Both the position numbers and the translations under genes were made by a program. Below, piece by piece: positions 5,620-35,853 of a stretch of 64,000 bases of DNA; position 1 is the stretch's first letter, and each line of letters begins with the position of its first letter. Below the pieces are notes generated by a model that did no database searches, had not been told where the DNA came from, and saw nothing but the letters and a program-made list of their open reading frames with translations. Origin of the DNA: Eledone cirrhosa (Eukaryota); the NCBI GenBank assembly GCA_964016885.1, contig OZ024745.1, positions 106,454,001 to 106,518,000 of the forward strand, given 5' to 3'.

Positions 5620-5815
5620 CAAACATGAATGGACCTGTTATTTTTATCTAAAGACATTTTTTCCAAATCCATCCCGCCCGTACCCTCAAACTTATTTCTC
5701 ATTCTTTCTTCTGATGAAGGACTAGCGTCCGAAACGTTATGACCCTCTTCCTGCTATATTAAGCGTTAACCTAATATATCCCTTCCATATACTGTACCGA
5801 TTGAGTTCTTATTTC
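5620..5815 (+). mobile_element. Solo Penelope-like pLTR with minimal HHR motif
   Basis: CTGATGA-a-ggac/gtcc-GAAA-cgtt at 5711-5740. Homologous to 59010-59210, which lies downstream of a GIY-YIG fragment. Confidence 0.75.
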
Positions 5816-5863
5816 GGTTTACCTATATATATATATATATATGTGTGTGCGTTTGTGAATGTG

Positions 5864-5911
<48 letters not shown>

Positions 5912-5925
5912 CACACACACGCACG

Positions 5926-5992
<67 letters not shown>

Positions 5993-6081
5993 GTAGAACA
6001 CTGGAAGGTAATATCCGTAGTGGTAGACCACTCAGTCCATGGGACGAGTTAGGTAGAAGTGGTTACACAACAGTTAGTTAA

Positions 6082-6131
6082 CCATACCGAGAACAATTGT
6101 TTCACCTTAGGGAATCCTCAGCTCGTAATGG
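6082..6131 (-). ncRNA. Minimal hammerhead ribozyme (family A)
   Basis: ccattacgag-CTGAGGA-ttccctaaggt-GAAA-caattg-TT-ctcggtatgg; palindromic stem III. Confidence 0.75.
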
Positions 6132-6890
6132 ACATGGTTATACGGAACAGGAAAGACAACCGTACGAACGCGCATGCGCAGAAACGGTCACTTCACTCAG
6201 GCAATACTAAATTGCGTGCGAGAGGTGTAAGGGAGATAACTGCGAAAGTCCGAAAGTTTTTAGTTGATAAGAAAATTAGGATGTTGTTGTAGTTCAATCC
6301 GGAGCTTTGTAGCTATGTAAGAGGTGTTTCCAGACGTGTGGACAAAGTGTGAAGAATTCATTTCATGAGTTTAGGCAAACGCTATTGCACAATCTCTTTA
6401 GAATATTTATTCATTCATCAATACATAGTCTACACGACGGATTGCCCCTTGCGTATGGCTTGGACTTAGTGATGGCTTTCCATTGAATGGAGTGGTCTAT
6501 ACTTTAGTCCTTGACGGACCATACGGGGCTCGCGAGTTTCGTGGATGAACGTCTTTCCGGGTACCTAAAGGTCGACTGGTGGTTCAGGAAGCGTTCCTTA
6601 AATCAGTCCTCTGCATTACCCACATAGGATTTGACCTCTTGTGGTTGATTTGGTCGGTTGGAAGGGACCACAGCTTCATAAACTACAACGGGTGTGTTAC
6701 ATTGCTGTTGAAGGAGACAAGCTTCGGGCTTACGGCAAAAGCACCCTGGTGGGTGTTTCTCTTAGGGCTGTTGGTGATGTGGGCCTTCATGTTCTTAGTG
6801 CACGAGTATCCAAGTTTTACTTTGTGTCGGTTAAAGACTGAGCGGTATTTATTACCTATGGGAAAGTGTTTATCTAAGAGGGCTAGAAAT

Positions 6891-7500
6891 TTGTTCTCAC
6901 TCCACGTTAAAACCAATGTAGGCAAAACATTTCTGGCCCTCTTAGATAGACAGTTTCTCATAGGTTATAAATACCGCTCCATCTTTAACCGACACAAAGT
7001 AAAACTAGGATACTCTGGCGCTAAGAACATGAAGGCCCACATCACCAACAGCCCTAAGAGCAACACCCCACCAGGGTGCTTTTGCCGTAAGCCCGAAGCT
7101 TCTCCCCATCAACAGCAATGCAACACACCCGCTGTAGTTTATGAAGCTGTGATCACTTCCAACCGACCAAATCAAGCACAGGAGGTCAAATCCTATGTGG
7201 GTATAGCAGAGGACCGATTTATTGAACGCTCTGTACCACCAGTCGACCTTTAGGTACCCGGACAGACATTCATCCACGAAACTCGCGAGCCACGTATGGT
7301 CCCTCAAGGACACATGTATAGACTACTCCATTCAATGGAAAGCCATCACTAAGTCCAAGCCATATGCAAGGGGCAATCCGTGTTGTAGACTATGTAGTGA
7401 TGAATGAATAAATATTCTAAAGAGATTACGTAATAGCAATTGCCTAAACGCAAGATATGAATTCTTCACACGTTACCCACACGTCTGGAAACACCTCTTA
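6891..7500 (+). pseudogene. Penelope-like RT C-terminal/GIY-YIG endonuclease remnant
   Basis: ORFs 6579-7253 (3' part) and 7222-7407 join by frameshift into the VVY..YVG..RF..H..LC..E GIY-YIG pattern. Confidence 0.88.
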
Positions 7501-7683
7501 CATAGCTACAAAGCTCTTGATTGAACTACAACATCCTAATGTTCTTATCAACTAGAAACTTTCGGACTTTCGCAGTTATCTCCCTTACACCTCTCGCACA
7601 CAATTTAGTATTGCCTGAGTGAACTGGTCGTTTCTGCGCATGCGCGTTCGTACGGTTGTCCTTCCTGTTCCGTATGACCATGT

Positions 7684-7733
7684 CCATTACGAGCTGAAGA
7701 TCCGCTAAGGTGAAACAATTCTTCTCGGTATGG
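7684..7733 (+). ncRNA. Minimal hammerhead ribozyme (family A), stem III mutated
   Basis: ccattacgag-CTGAAGA-tccgctaaggt-GAAA-caattc-TT-ctcggtatgg. Confidence 0.65.
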
Positions 7734-7771
7734 TGAACTAGCTGTTGTCTAACCACTTCTCTCTCTCTCTC

Positions 7772-7823
<52 letters not shown>

Positions 7824-7890
7824 CAAACAACGAAACGAAATTAAATTTCGTTTCGTTTGTAACTCACTTTTGTATGACTGACGCTTAAAC

Positions 7891-8144
7891 AATTAAGTTA
7901 AGTTAAAAATGTACATCTACATATGCATATTGAAATACTAGTATGCATATGAATACACACACGTATACATATGTAGATGTACCAAGTCTTTCACTGGTTA
8001 CTTTACTGTGAGTATCCAGCTATTCTGTATCACAGTAAAGTAACCAGTGAAAGACTTGGTACATCTACATATGTATACGTGTGTGTATTCATATGCATAC
8101 TAGTATTTCAATATGCATATGTAGATGTACATTTTTAACTTAAC

Positions 8145-8150
<6 letters not shown>
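7891..8150. repeat. Fold-back inverted repeat, ~120-bp arms
   Basis: aattaagttaag...actgtga / tcacagt...cttaacttaatt with ~18-bp spacer; ends in (TA)n. Confidence 0.92.
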
Positions 8151-8196
<46 letters not shown>

Positions 8197-8199
<3 letters not shown>

Positions 8200-8705
8200 A
8201 TAATAAAGTATATATCCCCACACAAAAAAAGCGTATAGGGACACATGTATTGTCCAACCATATGCCACATTGGCATATGGTTGGACAATACATGTGTCCC
8301 TATACGCTTTTTGTGTGTAGGGATATATACTTTATTATTATTATTCTCCTCTTGGTCGGGATAAAATTTGGTCGTTCTGACTGCTGCTATTTATAGTGGT
8401 AGTAGACTGACCTCCCTGCCTCTGCTTCTATCTTTACACACGGCACTTGAAGGAATTGCTTCCACATCATTCATTCTCATCTCGGGAACAATTTTGAATA
8501 GCGCCAGTTCGTAATTTGAAATCGGGAATTTTATATTCTCCGAGTGAAAAGAACCTTCTGACGAGAGTTTATCTTTTCAATGGAAGGCCGCAAGAACTGT
8601 CCATTTATTTTTGAGACTCGAAACCGATTCGGTAAAGGTAACAATAGTAAGTACAGTGAATTTTTGAAATTTATTTTGAAACTTTTTCTTATTTGCTAAA
8701 CCTTG

Positions 8706-13637: not shown

Positions 13638-14058
13638 GTATATATAAATGGAAAAAATGAAATTTCATTTCTCACTCTTAGTACGGCCGATACTTAAATA
13701 TAAGTATGTATACGTACATACATACATATATGTATACAGACGTACAGTAGTATGTATATATATATACATACATGCACACATATATATATGTACGTATGGA
13801 TTCACCGAACATTTATTATAATGCTCGGTGTGTTTGTAAACAAACATCCCGTATTAAGCCGTAGTGTCTAGCAACCATCGTTGCTCGTTTGATCAAGACT
13901 GACAAAGGAACGCTGTACTAGTTTCAAGCTTATTAGCTATTGTCAGCAACGTATACCTTCCTGCCAGATTGTTGAACGTATATACTTACCTTATGCATAT
14001 TAACGGCTGAGTAGCCCAATTTGCATATCGAGTGGGTTATATATATATATATATATAT

Positions 14059-14374: not shown

Positions 14375-14378
<4 letters not shown>
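14059..14378 (+). mobile_element. TA-flanked element end (family C) with variant HHR-like motif
   Basis: ccc-CAGTTGA-t-ggat/atcc-GAAA-tata-TA-ggg near 14136-14171. Homologous to both arms of 48735-49315. Confidence 0.65.
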
Positions 14379-14422
<44 letters not shown>

Positions 14423-14672
14423 GAGACGTATAGAGATTGTTTTAGCAAGAAGCTAACGGCATTCTATAACATATATGCGACTATAACGTCAAGATGGGAA
14501 AAGTAGTTAACGAAAGATTTAGGAAAAATAACTCAAACTCATCTCAAAAGAGAATCAGGATACAAATTCATCCACAGAATTTAGTAAAATCCATGGAAAA
14601 ATCTATAGACCTTTAACTCATGATAAAACAAAGTTTGAAACACTTATCCTTCAATTTGGAATAACATCAAAT

Positions 14673-14754
14673 GCTCTGTATAGTCTTAAAAGACTATTTC
14701 ATGAAAACTTTCAGTGGAGATGGTCACGGTTGGAATATCATTCATCAGCAGAGC
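14673..14754 (-). ncRNA. Type I hammerhead ribozyme, array copy 1
   Basis: gctctg-CTGATGA-atga..tcat-GAAA-tagtct(ttta)agacta-TA-cagagc; AUA site, predicted cut between 14679 and 14678. Confidence 0.92.
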
Positions 14755-15301
14755 TCAACAGAAAACCAGGGCTCTCACAGTAATATAGACCGAAAAAGGG
14801 AATTCTAAAACTGGCTAGTTCGCCTTCATGTGTATTTATGAAAAAGCACATGAGGAAAAAACGGGGCTAGTGACGTCAGGATGGAAGTGAATGTTTATTT
14901 ACAAGAAATAGCAGTCAAATACATTCTGAAAAAAACTCTACAAGGAGTTCAGCAAAATAGCAATAATTATCACAGTTTTTATGAAAAAAACCGGGATTAG
15001 TCACAGATAGTTTAAGCACTCTAGGAAAAGAATCCGAGTATAAATATAAATGAGACGTATAGAGATTGTTTTAGCAAGAAGCTAACGGCATTCTATAACA
15101 TATATGCGACTATAACGTCAAGATGGGAAAAGTAGTTAACGAAAGATTTAGGAAAAATAACTCAAACTCATCTCAAAAGAGAATCAGGATACAAATTCAT
15201 CCACAGAATTTAGTAAAATCCATGGAAAAATCTATAGACCTTTAACTCATGATAAAACAAAGTTTGAAACACTTATCCTTCAATTTGGAATAACATCAAA
15301 T

Positions 15302-15383
15302 GCTCTGTATAGTCTTAAAAGACTATTTCATGAAAACTTTCAGTGGAGATGGTCACGGTTGGAATATCATTCATCAGCAGAGC
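15302..15383 (-). ncRNA. Type I hammerhead ribozyme, array copy 2
   Basis: Same sequence as copy 1, offset by 629. Confidence 0.92.
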
Positions 15384-15930
15384 TCAACAGAAAACCAGGG
15401 CTCTCACAGTAATATAGTCCGAAAAATGGAATTCTAAAACTGGCTAGTTCGCCTTCATGTGTATTTATGAAAAAGCACATGAGGAAAAAACGGGGCTAGT
15501 GACGTCAGGATGGAAGTGAATGTTTATTTACAAGAAATAGCAGTCAAATACATTCTGAAAAAAACTCTACAAGGAGTTCAGCAAAATAGCAATAATTATC
15601 ACAGTTTTTATGAAAAAAACCGGGATTAGTCACAGATAGTTTAAGCACTCTAGGAAAAGAATCCGAGTATAAATATAAATGAGACGTATAGAGATTGTTT
15701 TAGCAAGAAGCTAACGGCATTCTATAACATATATGCGACTATAACGTCAAGATGGGAAAAGTAGTTAACGAAAGATTTAGGAAAAGTAACTCAAACTCAT
15801 CTCAAAAGAGAATCAGGATACAAATTCATCCACAGAATTTAGTAAAATCCATGGAAAAATCTATAGACCTTTAACTCATGATAAAACAAAGTTTGAAACA
15901 CTTATCCTTCAATTTGGAATAACATCAAAT

Positions 15931-16012
15931 GCTCTGTATAGTCTTAAAAGACTATTTCATGAAAACTTTCAGTGGAGATGGTCACGGTTGGAATATCATT
16001 CATCAGCAGAGC
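15931..16012 (-). ncRNA. Type I hammerhead ribozyme, array copy 3
   Basis: Same sequence as copy 1, offset by 1258. Confidence 0.92.
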
Positions 16013-16384
16013 TCAACAGAAAACCAGGGCTCTCACAGTAATATAGTCCGAAAAAGAGAATTCTAAAACTGGCTAGTTTGCCTTCATGTGTATTTATGAA
16101 AAAGCACATGAGGAAAAAACGGGGCTAGTGACGTCAGGATGGAAGTGAATGTTTATTTACAAGAAATAGCAGTCAAATACATTCTGAAAAAAACTCTACA
16201 AGGAGTTCAGCAAAATAGCAATAATTATCACAGTTTATATATATATATATACGTTCAACAATCTGGCAGGAAGGTATACGTTGCTGACAATTTAGACATG
16301 ATAGTGTAGTTTGAAATCACTGGTAGTGCAGAGGTCATGATAAACTGTTTATATATATATATATATATATTTATATAAACTGTT

Positions 16385-16466
<82 letters not shown>

Positions 16467-16506
16467 GATATTAAATAAATGGAAACTATATTTATAAAAC
16501 CATATT

Positions 16507-16572
16507 TATTTCATTATATATATTTCAGGGATATCATATTAACAATATGTTATGCCTTCTTCAGACAAAATA
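16507..16572 (-). ncRNA. Hammerhead ribozyme (family B)
   Basis: Mirror copy of 18977-19042. Confidence 0.8.
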
Positions 16573-18976
16573 CAATATAGACAGTTTTATAGATAAATAG
16601 ATTTGACATACCGTTCAACATCGACTTGTATTTGAAAAAGTTGATTTGGCAGTGAAAAATTGTAAACAGAAAGAAAGAAAGAAAGAAAGAAGGAAAGAAA
16701 GAAAGAAAACGAAGGAAAGAAAGAAAGAAAACGAAGAAAAAGAAGAAAAAGAAGAAATGCATGCAACAAAATAGAGAGATGGAAAGATAGATAAAGAGAA
16801 GAACTTCATGTAAAGAAACAGAGAGAGATATATAGAGAGAGGAAATAGATAGAGATAGATATATATAGAGAAAAGTAGGTAGTTGAACGACGTATCAATG
16901 ATACATTTATTTATTTATTTATTTATTTAGCTCTAGTATTAATGTAAGGGAGATATATGTGGTTAGGAAAGAAACCAGCCGTTATATAGAGAGAAAAATG
17001 AAAAGTAACCAGACATAGGCGAGGCAGAATTTAAAAACCCTATGTTTTAATGTAGAAATATTAGTTCGTATAAAAACCAGGCACTATAATGTAAATATCA
17101 GTATTCCTGAATGAGACACGTATCTATAATGTGTGAAAAGTAATGATCTTATGTCTAGTTTTAAAAATTCATATGTTTATATGATAACTACAAACATCGA
17201 TGTGAATTTACGTGATCAACTCTGCAAACCCCTATTTCACACGGAGAACATTCTCATTGTGCTATAAAAATTTAAGTATACATATATGTGTATATATACA
17301 CATATATATAGAGTCTATATTAATTTTAACAATACTATTCTTGTCTTTACTCTACATGATTATCTATCAAGCAGAAATAGAGAACAGATTTCAATATATT
17401 AATAAAAATATCAGAAACAAAAACAAAAAATAATAATAATAATAATAATAATAAACAAATAAATAAAATAGAGAACTAAAAAATATTACATATTAAAAAT
17501 GAAAATATTAAAAATATTAAAAAATATTAAAATAATAAAAATAAAAACATAATATGCCACGCAAATCGACCACAAAGATCAACCCTTCAAAATTAATTGA
17601 CAATATATTGCCAAGTTCATTATAAGCATCAGAGTCGAAAACAGATAAAGCTAAAAAATTATTTACCAAATCGCGTCTAGCAGAAATCATTTCAAAAGTT
17701 TAGGATGCCCATTTGGTCTACATATGTTCTTATATTTAATATAGAAGTTTATCTAGTGTAACGTTTATTCGATATATTTGGAGCATCAACTTTTAGGGTA
17801 GTTTAAATATTAAATATAAGAACATATGTAGACCAAATGGGCATCCTAAACTTTTGAAATGATTTCTGCTAGACGCGATTTGGTAAATAATTTTTTAGCT
17901 TTATCTGTTTTCGACTCTGATGCTTATAATGAACTTGGCAATATATTGTCAATTAATTTTGAAGGGTTGATCTTTGTGGTCGATTTGCGTGGCATATTAT
18001 GTTTTTATTTTTATTATTTTAATATTTTTTAATATTTTTAATATTTTCATTTTTAATATGTAATATTTTTTAGTTCTCTATTTTATTTATTTGTTTATTA
18101 TTATTATTATTATTATTATTTTTTGTTTTTGTTTCTGATATTTTTATTAATATATTGAAATCTGTTCTCTATTTCTGCTTGATAGATAATCATGTAGAGT
18201 AAAGACAAGAATAGTATTGTTAAAATTAATATAGACTCTATATATATGTGTATATATACACATATATGTATACTTAAATTTTTATAGCACAATGAGAATG
18301 TTCTCCGTGTGAAATAGGGGTTTGCAGAGTTGATCACGTAAATTCACATCGATGTTTGTAGTTATCATATAAACATATGAATTTTTAAAACTAGACATAA
18401 GATCATTACTTTTCACACATTATAGATACGTGTCTCATTCAGGAATACTGATATTTACATTATAGTGCCTGGTTTTTATACGAACTAATATTTCTACATT
18501 AAAACATAGGGTTTTTAAATTCTGCCTCGCCTATGTCTGGTTACTTTTCATTTTTCTCTATATATAACGGCTGGTTTCTTTCCTAACCACATATATCTCC
18601 CTTACATTAATACTAGAGCTAAATAAATAAATAAATAAATAAATGTATCATTGATACGTCGTTCAACTACCTACTTTTCTCTATATATATCTATCTCTAT
18701 CTATTTCCTCTCTCTATATATCTCTCTCTGTTTCTTTACATGAAGTTCTTCTCTTTATCTATCTTTCCATCTCTCTATTTTGTTGCATGCATTTCTTCTT
18801 TTTCTTCTTTTTCTTCGTTTTCTTTCTTTCTTTCCTTCGTTTTCTTTCTTTCTTTCCTTCTTTCTTTCTTTCTTTCTTTCTGTTTACAATTTTTCACTGC
18901 CAAATCAACTTTTTCAAATACAAGTCGATGTTGAACGGTATGTCAAATCTATTTATCTATAAAACTGTCTATATTG

Positions 18977-19042
18977 TATTTTGTCTGAAGAAGGCATAAC
19001 ATATTGTTAATATGATATCCCTGAAATATATATAATGAAATA
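18977..19042 (+). ncRNA. Hammerhead ribozyme (family B), palindromic TATATA stem III
   Basis: tattttgt-CTGAAGA-agg..catatt/aatatg..cct-GAAA-tatata-TA-atgaaata. Confidence 0.8.
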
Positions 19043-19169
19043 AATATGGTTTTATAAATATAGTTTCCATTTATTTAATATCGTAAATATACTCCAAATA
19101 CTTGTTGAGTGCTTTTATATCAGTTATAAATATTTACTGGTTGTAACCCAACAATTTAAATATAACTTT

Positions 19170-19343
<174 letters not shown>

Positions 19344-21172
19344 AGTTTATCATGACATCTGCACTACCAATGATTTCAAACTACACTATCATGTCTAAAT
19401 TGTCAGGTCTACCTGATGATTTATATTGGTTTTCGCCATGAAACCGCTGGTACTGCGGAGAGAATTTAAACTTTTGATATAATAAATAGACACCTTATGC
19501 ATATGGTTTGATTTGATTTTTTTTGTTTCTATCTCTCGTTTGTATTCAGTATGTGTGTCTGTGTGTGTTGGTTTATATTATTTATTTATTTGTGGGAGTG
19601 AAGGTATTTGCGGCAATAAACTTCCCGATTTTGTACATATTAGCAAACTAAGTTTTTTGTATATTTGAGGAATACTCAATCGTTTTGTATGACAGCCCCT
19701 AACTCTATCCTGTCCGAATTGTTAGAATTAAACGTAAAATGAGGTAGAATAATTATGCCAAATCGAACTGGCATTTATGTCCCGGTATGCAACACATTAA
19801 GTATTTTATATGAAATATGTACGTCATAGGCATTAGATTTGTCCGAATAGAAGCACCATCATAGACAAAGACAGAAATGTTGGTATAGGGGGAGGGGGGT
19901 CTCAAATCGGTTTAATACACAAAAAACTTTAAAGCGTTTACTAAATTTGCAAGTAGAATCAGTACATGACAAGATACAACATCACTGTTCCAAACGAAAT
20001 ATCTCACTGATTGCAGAGGTAAACAAAAATGAGTAGAAATGCGCGCGTGGTTAAGTAATAAAGATATTAAACATGTACTGAATGAATGCCTCTTGTGCAA
20101 TTTATAGAGTAAATATTTTGATGTCAAATTTAGGCACAAAACCAGCAATTTGTGCGAGAAGAAATCACTCCCAGTACTTTATTTTGTAGATCCCAGAAAA
20201 ATTGACGGTAAAGTAGCCATGGTGGGATTTGAACTCGGGAATTGAAGAGTCAGTAAAAACTACTATGCGTTTATCACACACTAACAACTCTTGACAAATG
20301 TTTCCTTCAAATCTTCCCTGAAATACCCAGCTTTACCAAACACTGTTTTGAAAACACGGTAGTTTCAGTGAACTTAAGAAGTTAATACTCAATATTATAC
20401 AGGTCAACATCTACATGAGATTGTGTTAGATAAAACTAGCACTTTCAATTACTGATTTAGTCCATCTACTCAATTTTCCCCATAACTTTGCGTCGTTATG
20501 ACGTGCTGATTGTAAAGAGAGCTTTTTAACATTAGGGTTAATCGTGTGCATAGATTTAGATGTAATAGTTTGTGTAAACAGATATCTTATCACATGTATA
20601 TACATACAAACTGAAAACGACGTGCTTTAAGATGTGAAATTAGCAATATATTACTTGTATTTCACGGCAGAATACATGTTATATTAGTAACAGCAAGTTT
20701 AAATCTAAACAGTTGAGGACCTAAAATGATAACAATCGAGCGAAAAGGAATCCATTTGAATTCAAATGTTGATAGATTGTTATAGAGCCCTCTTCAAGTT
20801 AGGTCGTCCCCCTGTTGGAGTGCATTTAGCAGAAATCTAATCTGTGCCTGAAGAGAGATATATATGTTTATGTTAATGATATCAAACTAAATAACAATTA
20901 AGTAACGTGATAACATTAGTTTTCTTTCTTATTCTGTTGAAAGCTTTCTTGTCTCAAGTGGACTAATTCTTATCTATTTAGAGGCTTCCGTTCGATTGAA
21001 GTTTTTACAGCTTTGTCGGTACAGTAAAACACTTCTTTGAACCGTTAAAACACCTGTCGGAAACCGAGGGCAACTTCAAACAAGTGCTTTACGAGTATAC
21101 TTTATCTACACACGCACAAGTACACACACACAAATATATATATGTGTGTGTGTGTGTGTGTGTATGTCTGTC

Positions 21173-21683: not shown

Positions 21684-22326
21684 CACGCCGTGGGAATTGC
21701 AGTTTCAGTAGAGCGTCGGGTCAACATGCTTACTGAGTTAGAGCTACAGCTTTTTTCGTTCTGAGTTCAACTCCCATCGAGTTTATTTTTGCCTTTCATC
21801 CTTACGGGGTTGATAAAATAAAGTACCAGTAATGTACTGGAGTCGATTTAATCGACTTCACCCTTTCCCCCAAATTGTTGGCCTTGTGCCTAGATTAGAA
21901 ACCATTATTTATTTGTATATAAAAGAGCGGTGGATTGGCAGTATCGGTAGAGGGTCGGACGCCATGCTTTCCAGCATAGTTACGTCCCTTTACGATCTGA
22001 GTTCAAATCCCGCCGAGATTGACTTTGCCTTTCATCCTTACGAGGTCGATAAAATAAAGTACCAGTGATGCACTGGGTAATTGCTGGCCTTGTGCCTAAA
22101 GTAGAGACAATTATTTATTTGTATATAATTGCGGTGGATTGGCAGTATCGGTAGAGAGTCGGACGCCATGCTTTCCAGCATGTCCCTTTACGATCTGAGT
22201 TCAAATCCCGCCGAGGTTGACTTTGCCTTTCATCCTTACGGGGTCGATAAAATAAAGTACCAGTAATGCACTGGGTAATTGCTGGCCTTGTGCCTAAAGT
22301 AGAGACAATTATTTATTTGTATATAT
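21684..22326 (+). mobile_element. Three tandem SINE S1 copies
   Basis: ~21684-21908, 21927-22093 and 22131-22311, each followed by ttatttatttgtatata. Confidence 0.9.
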
Positions 22327-35441: not shown

Positions 35442-35591
35442 TTATTTTTAGACCGAGCTGAGGATCCGAATAAGGTGAAACATTTGTTCTCGGTATGGTT
35501 AACGAACTGTTGTGGAACTACTGCTACCGAACTCGTCCCATGGACTGAGTGATCTACTACTACGGATATAACCCACCATGGTTCTACTACG

Positions 35592-35596
<5 letters not shown>
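35440..35596 (+). mobile_element. Family A end with minimal HHR (35452-35494)
   Basis: accgag-CTGAGGA-tccgaataaggt-GAAA-catttg-TT-ctcggt; perfect 6-bp stem I. Confidence 0.8.
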
Positions 35597-35651
<55 letters not shown>

Positions 35652-35656
<5 letters not shown>

Positions 35657-35853
35657 GTGGTTACACAACAGTTAGTTCACCATACCGAGAACAATTGTTT
35701 CACCTTAGCAGATCCTCAGCTGAGGATCCGCTAAGGTGAAACAATTGTTCTCGGTATGGTGAACTAACTATTGTGTAACCACTTCTATCAAACTCGTCCC
35801 ATGGACTGAGTGCTCTACCACTACGGATATTACCTTCCAGTGTTCTACCACTA
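35652..35853. mobile_element. Family A end folded back at the HHR core
   Basis: Palindrome centre tcctcag|ctgagga at 35719/35720; TA flanks. Confidence 0.88.

Follow-up and report, generated by a model that had tools for sequence, protein, structure and literature searches.

The window analysed here, a 64,000-nt stretch of the Eledone cirrhosa genome, contains an insertion of 1822 nt (14415-16236) that comprises 2.90 units of 629 nt and is bounded by (TA)n runs. At a period of 629 nt, 1074 of 1080 positions match, and neighbouring units differ at 2 sites (units 1 and 2) or 4 sites (units 2 and 3). The whole insertion consists of unit sequence between the TA runs, with no LTR/PBS/PPT layout. 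The circularised unit has a longest stop-free frame of only 83 aa on the plus strand and 51 aa on the minus strand, which rules out a hidden protein on a 629-nt circle. The first-pass annotation of this DNA, which had described an array of 2.9 x 629 nt at these positions, built of near-identical units without an open reading frame (ORF), is therefore borne out on both counts. The features of the locus are as follows.

14415..16236, minus strand (the RNA sense): whole insertion of 2.90 units (14415-15043, 15044-15672 and 15673-16236)
14415..14430, minus strand: the family's fixed end, which is 3′ in the RNA-sense copy; a TA-like motif, recurrent in arrays, at which cDNA synthesis primed from a (TA)n target would begin
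16225..16236, minus strand: variable end (5′ truncation) at phase 564 of turn 3, joined to (TA)n
14377..14419, unstranded: (TA)n run at the fixed end, the target site
16237..16251, unstranded: (TA)n run at the variable end
14673..14754, minus strand: first type I hammerhead motif (cleavage predicted at 14679/14678)
15302..15383, minus strand: second type I hammerhead motif (cleavage predicted at 15308/15307)
15931..16012, minus strand: third type I hammerhead motif (cleavage predicted at 15937/15936)
14679..15307, minus strand: predicted cut-to-cut monomer of 629 nt, deduced from the cut sites; a second at 15308-15936
15149..15280, minus strand: predicted long hairpin of the monomer, within which few copies stop
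15500..15531, unstranded: TGACGTCA palindrome and TGTTT(A/G)TTTAC motif, a candidate internal promoter upstream of the hammerhead

The TGACGTCA palindrome, which we take to be a putative CRE, is retained in 12 of 15 diverged units, and the TGTTT(A/G)TTTAC motif, presumably a forkhead site, in 14 of 15. A Pol III promoter was sought by eye and found no support.

Several other repeats lie in the same window. Next to the array, 16458-19091 is an inverted repeat with arms of 1,285 nt (2 mismatches) and a 64-nt spacer, which is either an inverted insertion of the type made by Penelope-like elements (PLEs) or an assembly fold-back; at the start of each arm is a TA-flanked repeat of 185 nt that contains a minimal hammerhead-like motif (16564 on the minus strand, 18985 on the plus strand) and recurs in many loci, often as inverted pairs. 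The array is flanked by inverted ends of another TA-inserting short repeat (13939-13982 and 16248-16345), which are independent insertions rather than array termini, since they also occur at 19345-19406 and at other loci. A 198-nt tandem of 2.2 copies is located at 21873-22325. Further PLE-type CUGANGA/GAAA motifs occur at 5700-8600, 27059, 32376, 35458-35720, 38827, 49461, 59116 and 60793, two of which follow decayed PLE ORF ends in inverted orientation (6399-6889, minus strand; 7216-7419, plus strand).

Structure and conservation of the hammerhead motif

Each unit carries on its minus strand a complete type I hammerhead ribozyme (HHR) motif, as the first reading had proposed, and the A17 residues of the three motifs fall at 15937, 15308 and 14679. 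The motif is composed of stem I (GCTCTG/CAGAGC, 6 bp), the CTGATGA core, GAAA, an AUA site, and stem III (TAGTCT/AGACTA, 6 bp plus A15.1-U16.1). Stems I and III, core and site thus stand as originally laid out, to which must be added a weak stem II that had gone unmentioned: ATGA/TCAT, 4 bp enclosing a 33-nt loop. A search of the motif against Rfam gave no hit at the gathering score, none at E<=10, and no other family, and a loop II pseudoknot inspected by eye had no support.

ViennaRNA placed the active fold 2.7-3.4 kcal/mol above the ensemble in all nine contexts folded; it is predicted to make up ~1% of the ensemble, because the AUGA of the core can slip onto stem II and pair with its 3′ strand. 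This register slip may leave the HHR mostly off. Folded as a circle, the monomer has z scores of about -3.6 on the minus strand and -3.5 on the plus strand, so that its stability is not strand-specific.

Conservation was assessed in an alignment of 28 motifs, namely that of the window, one near relative, and 26 of 30 loci picked by their HHR (L186, L187, L189 and L205, being repeats of one array or truncated, were left out). Overall, 93.8% of cells are paired, with 97.6% in stem I and 98.5% in stem III. At two stem II pairs, both bases differ between motifs (CG in 15 and UA in 12 motifs; AU in 23 and UA in 2), and the covariation score is matched by 0 of 500 shuffles, with a significance that relatedness among the motifs inflates. 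Only 5 of 28 relatives have a standard pair at 10.1-11.1, the first pair of stem II. Diverged relatives vary at N7 of CUGANGA and in the length of the stem III loop while retaining the remaining core, and a commoner, older subfamily has a stem II of 6 bp. Relatives at 76-94% identity retain the HHR together with the stem II covariation, and three contig runs yielded diverged relatives that have the HHR region in common. Across 14 full diverged units, identity is 0.90 in the HHR region vs 0.84 elsewhere, a conservation that is inflated because a part of the core and loop was preset in the HHR patterns by which relatives were collected. A young copy, L225, has a 21-nt deletion across the HHR core.

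A dispersed family with one fixed and one variable end

The first-pass annotation had named other genomic copies with permuted start points as a check on its reading, and the host assembly (3.0 Gb, 1,796 contigs) holds a dispersed family. With one unit as query, 2,329 candidates were obtained, and the 40 that were scored yielded at least 89 matches at 93-100% identity on many contigs. The exact 26-letter pattern of the young end occurs at 190 places and a degenerate end pattern at 1,150, mostly in (TA)n; genome-wide matches to two HHR patterns number 547 and 669. Young arrays were represented by the first 100 of the 190 young insertions and 19 more from the whole-unit search, and these 119 arrays, 67,866 nt in total, diverge by 0.23% on average (158 variant calls).

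Start points are not permuted. Among 25 distinct arrays from 30 loci selected by whole-unit match, blind to their ends, all 25 have one end in common, within about 6 nt and adjoining (TA)n, which rules out permuted ends. The same end is found in 40 of 40 loci picked by HHR (one of which, L162, has an inverted 5′ part) and in 26 of 27 diverged arrays at 76-94% identity. It is the 3′ end on the HHR strand, lies 264 nt downstream of the predicted cut, and has a TA-like motif. The description of the window array as starting and stopping mid-unit at TA thus holds for its TA flanks and its variable right end, while its left end is the fixed end of the family. Fixed ends adjoining a reverse transcriptase (RT) ORF had been named as evidence against a retrozyme; here one end only is fixed, and 0 of 40 HHR-picked arrays continue into a PLE ORF.

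From the fixed end, young copies form a length continuum of 25 to 2,315 nt, and older arrays extend to 5.8 units. Ends per kb at risk amount to 3.2-5.9 at phases 1-100, 0.4-1.2 at phases 101-300, where the cut and the long hairpin are predicted, 2.2-3.9 at phases 301-450, and 0-1.6 beyond, with L046 (at a locus edge) and L116 (ending in Ns) not scored. (TA)n adjoins the fixed end in 99 of 100 insertions and is present within 40 nt of the other end in 80 of 100; target-site duplications are unreadable in TA runs. In L059 (L136), L208 and L204, copying begins anew near the fixed end after the variable end, as from two priming events at one site. Additionally, short pieces of the few terminal bases are re-copied at the variable end of L031, L049, L073, L103, L111 and L127, as from repeated re-priming before joining.

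Read-through of the cut and the nature of the template

Among the first 100 young insertions, 60 pass the first cut, 33 are longer than one unit, and 14 contain two HHRs. None of the 100 ends within 5 nt of the first cut and one ends near the second, and phases 255-275 are crossed by 60 of 60, 19 of 20 and 6 of 6 copies in turns 1, 2 and 3, respectively. A linear monomer cut at both HHRs would cap the cDNA at 264 nt, which 60 of the 100 exceed; the template was therefore continuous at this position, whether as a circle, as an uncut multimer, or through near-perfect jumping.

Jumping would involve a linear cut monomer as template, with the RT passing from its 5′ end to the 3′ end of the same or sometimes another molecule. 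It would yield an all-turn pattern of variants identical to that of a circle, and two arrays are in keeping with it: L128, in which a switch between turns 2 and 3 spans the cut site, and the young copy L043, which has a 19-nt deletion spanning the first cut and ends 4 nt past the second. However, copies are not lost at the cut (85 of 86 crossings continue), and the junction has no added or missing bases in the other arrays, so that jumping would need to be near-perfect. We regard this explanation as quite unlikely.

Variants compared from turn to turn bear on the same question. At positions covered at least twice in the 119 young arrays, 16 calls are present in all turns (in 12 arrays), 1 is partial and 38 are single. 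Two of the 16 represent a common homopolymer insertion and 7 are private among the 119 arrays, while 2 of the 38 are one homopolymer site called two ways. The single partial variant is 156A>G in L128, present in turns 1-2 and absent in turn 3. All-turn variants occur in arrays of 1.x units (L019, L041, L048, L054 and L096) and reach the terminal partial turn of the 2.x-unit arrays L020, L059 and L083; they cannot have come from DNA-level duplication of one unit. Furthermore, L161 has a 30-nt deletion in both full turns. A-to-I editing of the template was rejected as a source of variants, T>C being in no excess over A>G (13 vs 14, p=0.43; in older arrays, p=0.38).

Growth of roughly one-unit insertions in place, by DNA duplication or unequal exchange in the manner of a minisatellite, would fit the older long arrays L146, L147 and L156, which show alternating patterns (0101, 1010) and 22 private partial substitutions, and local amplification has been proposed in a preprint (10.64898/2026.07.22.740005). 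For the young arrays it is highly improbable: a partial pattern is seen in just 1 of 55 calls, duplication of less than one unit cannot give 1.x-unit arrays with a variant in both passes, and lengths are continuous from one fixed end. The alternating patterns imply that local DNA-level duplication acts later.

Two private variants were traced through the genome. All three matches to 432G>T are the three turns of L082, and 283T>G is found in the three turns of L083 and in one older copy of 93.5% identity; no longer donor array for either exists in this one assembly, from which donors could be absent. The 156A>G change occurs in three arrays genome-wide with patterns 111, 110 and 11, by which neither multi-turn carrier can be a linear copy of the other. 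In L083, the all-turn variant (283T>G) changes A15.1 of the core in each of the three turns, which makes self-cleavage of its template in cis improbable; the near-palindromic stem III might allow cutting in trans.

These variants weigh against a template consisting of the uncleaved multimeric transcript of an existing array, on which a PLE RT would prime at one of the repeated internal sites and proceed in the 5′ direction, with the HHR acting rarely or in some other step. Such a transcript would account for the fixed end and the lack of stops at the cut, agrees with the in vitro behaviour of a PLE (PMC11167929), and is in line with the weak stem II and with the A15.1 change in every turn of L083. 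Linear copying, however, cannot place a new variant in every turn, as seen in 16 all-turn calls vs 1 partial; it lacks a longer donor for 432G>T and 283T>G, cannot order the 156A>G carriers, and could only shorten daughter arrays relative to their donors. An uncleaved multimer is therefore, in our assessment, an unlikely template.

Given the excess of all-turn over partial variants and the lack of a donor for the two tested, one monomer was probably re-read, most simply as a circle. Of the rolling-circle reverse transcript originally proposed, more-than-unit copying of a re-read monomer is retained, with a circle as its simplest form, and permuted starts are discarded.

Proposed mechanism, relatives and significance

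What the family shows directly is its dispersal, its one fixed and one variable end, its insertion at TA targets, the lack of any halt at the cut site, repeated private variants, and a conserved, covarying HHR. The explanation that we favour, with moderate confidence, is that the array was inserted by a Penelope-like RT that copied 2.9 times round an HHR-released circular RNA, with its fixed end in (TA)n. In this scheme, an internal promoter would probably drive minus-strand transcription of arrays of at least about 970 nt, which contain two HHRs, and these HHRs would excise a 629-nt monomer that is then ligated into a circle. A GIY-YIG endonuclease would nick (TA)n DNA, and the nicked end would prime at the fixed TA-like site in the RNA, 264 nt 3′ of the cut. 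The RT would pass the sealed junction and continue round the circle until it falls off at structure-dependent positions, whereupon the cDNA would be joined to the other TA end. Whether the family as a whole is a genome record of rolling-circle reverse transcription on a ribozyme-made circle, with a hammerhead tuned mostly off so that the circle stays closed, we consider evenly balanced.

An autonomous PLE is ruled out as the identity of the element, as the unit has no ORF and no HHR-picked array runs into one. The genome contains two young TA-flanked families with intact ORFs of 784 and 777 aa, carrying YxDD and GIY-YIG-like motifs and in part arranged in tandem, with which the 629-nt unit shares no sequence (66 loci of the two families). 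An HHR scan of their tandem copies found none except one flanking motif, and a survey of the sequence after TA runs gave no usable partner link among the matches listed. One 784-aa RT plus GIY-YIG-type element (L284-L285, G000:C1:437198500-437215500) forms four tandem copies with a period of 3,531 and no HHR found, and the 777-aa family has three alternative ends, 157, 240 and 302 nt past the ORF.

By its sequence, the element falls within the definition of animal non-LTR retrozymes, with putative HHR activity: it has tandem non-coding units, type I HHRs in consecutive units, and dispersed copies. It resembles them in its non-coding tandems with one type I HHR per unit, low GC, dispersal, and co-occurrence with PLEs. 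Repeats of such retrozymes are described as 150-450 bp, with circles in coral, mussel and axolotl (PMC7229834). The first-pass annotation had considered the unit unusually long, but 629 nt lies within the 51-972 bp given for animal families by Li et al. 2026 (10.64898/2026.07.22.740005). Unlike animal non-LTR retrozymes, which have a 4-bp stem II with a short loop and a stem III of 1-2 bp, this family has a long, stable stem III, a weak stem II with a 33-nt loop, and no identified contact between loops 1 and 2. A dimeric hammerhead form has been described (PMC4209133), and no cleavage was seen for 8 of 9 dimers of Xenopus retrozymes (10.64898/2026.07.22.740005). The fixed priming end, the read-through of the cut, and the all-turn variants are not described in the available text of PMC7229834 and 10.64898/2026.07.22.740005. 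Plant LTR retrozymes (PMC4918200) are likewise non-autonomous and HHR-bearing, with a proposed circRNA intermediate, but their architecture of type III HHRs in LTRs, PBS, PPT and a 4-bp target-site duplication, as described in 10.64898/2026.07.22.740005 and PMC7229834, is absent here.

The fixed 3′ end, 5′ truncation, partial tandems, and microsatellite targets also characterize a non-autonomous PLE. PLEs are reported to have a fixed 3′ end, 5′ truncation, partial tandems, inversions and a (TA)n bias (Craig et al. 2021, 10.1101/2021.04.23.441226), all of which recur here, including the inverted 5′ part of L162. Internal RT initiation has been demonstrated for an anole PLE (PMC11167929, Frangieh et al. 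2024), and initiation downstream of the HHR is suggested here as well. Unlike PLEs, the family has no ORF, no autonomous parent sharing its sequence among the two young families examined, and a single start site, vs two sites with a 30-40 bp tail in PLEs. Its start site is TA-like and resembles the target, whereas the anole element, as reported, starts at a non-homologous site.

In the literature searched, no paper on this family or on a turn-by-turn test was found; as far as this literature extends, the family is a new member of the animal non-LTR retrozymes, and it may already be catalogued. Reports differ on the origin of more-than-unit insertions in retrozymes and PLEs. A circular template was proposed in 2014 (PMC4209133) and 2020 (PMC7229834), the latter suggesting, without a test, that primed circles are copied to tandem cDNA by PLE RTs, while the in vitro study of the anole PLE identified uncleaved RNA as the main template, with HHR mutants having no effect on insertion (PMC11167929). 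Population-level evidence of a circular-template origin was not found in the literature searched. The present family is young, numerous and short, which allows each turn to be examined for ends and variants; both favour the re-reading of one monomer. With its template, start site and target all defined, the element makes a test case for the circular-template model, and the turn-by-turn analysis is transferable to other families. If the proposed explanation is true, the family would provide population-level evidence for a circular-template origin of retrozyme arrays and of the partial tandems of PLEs.
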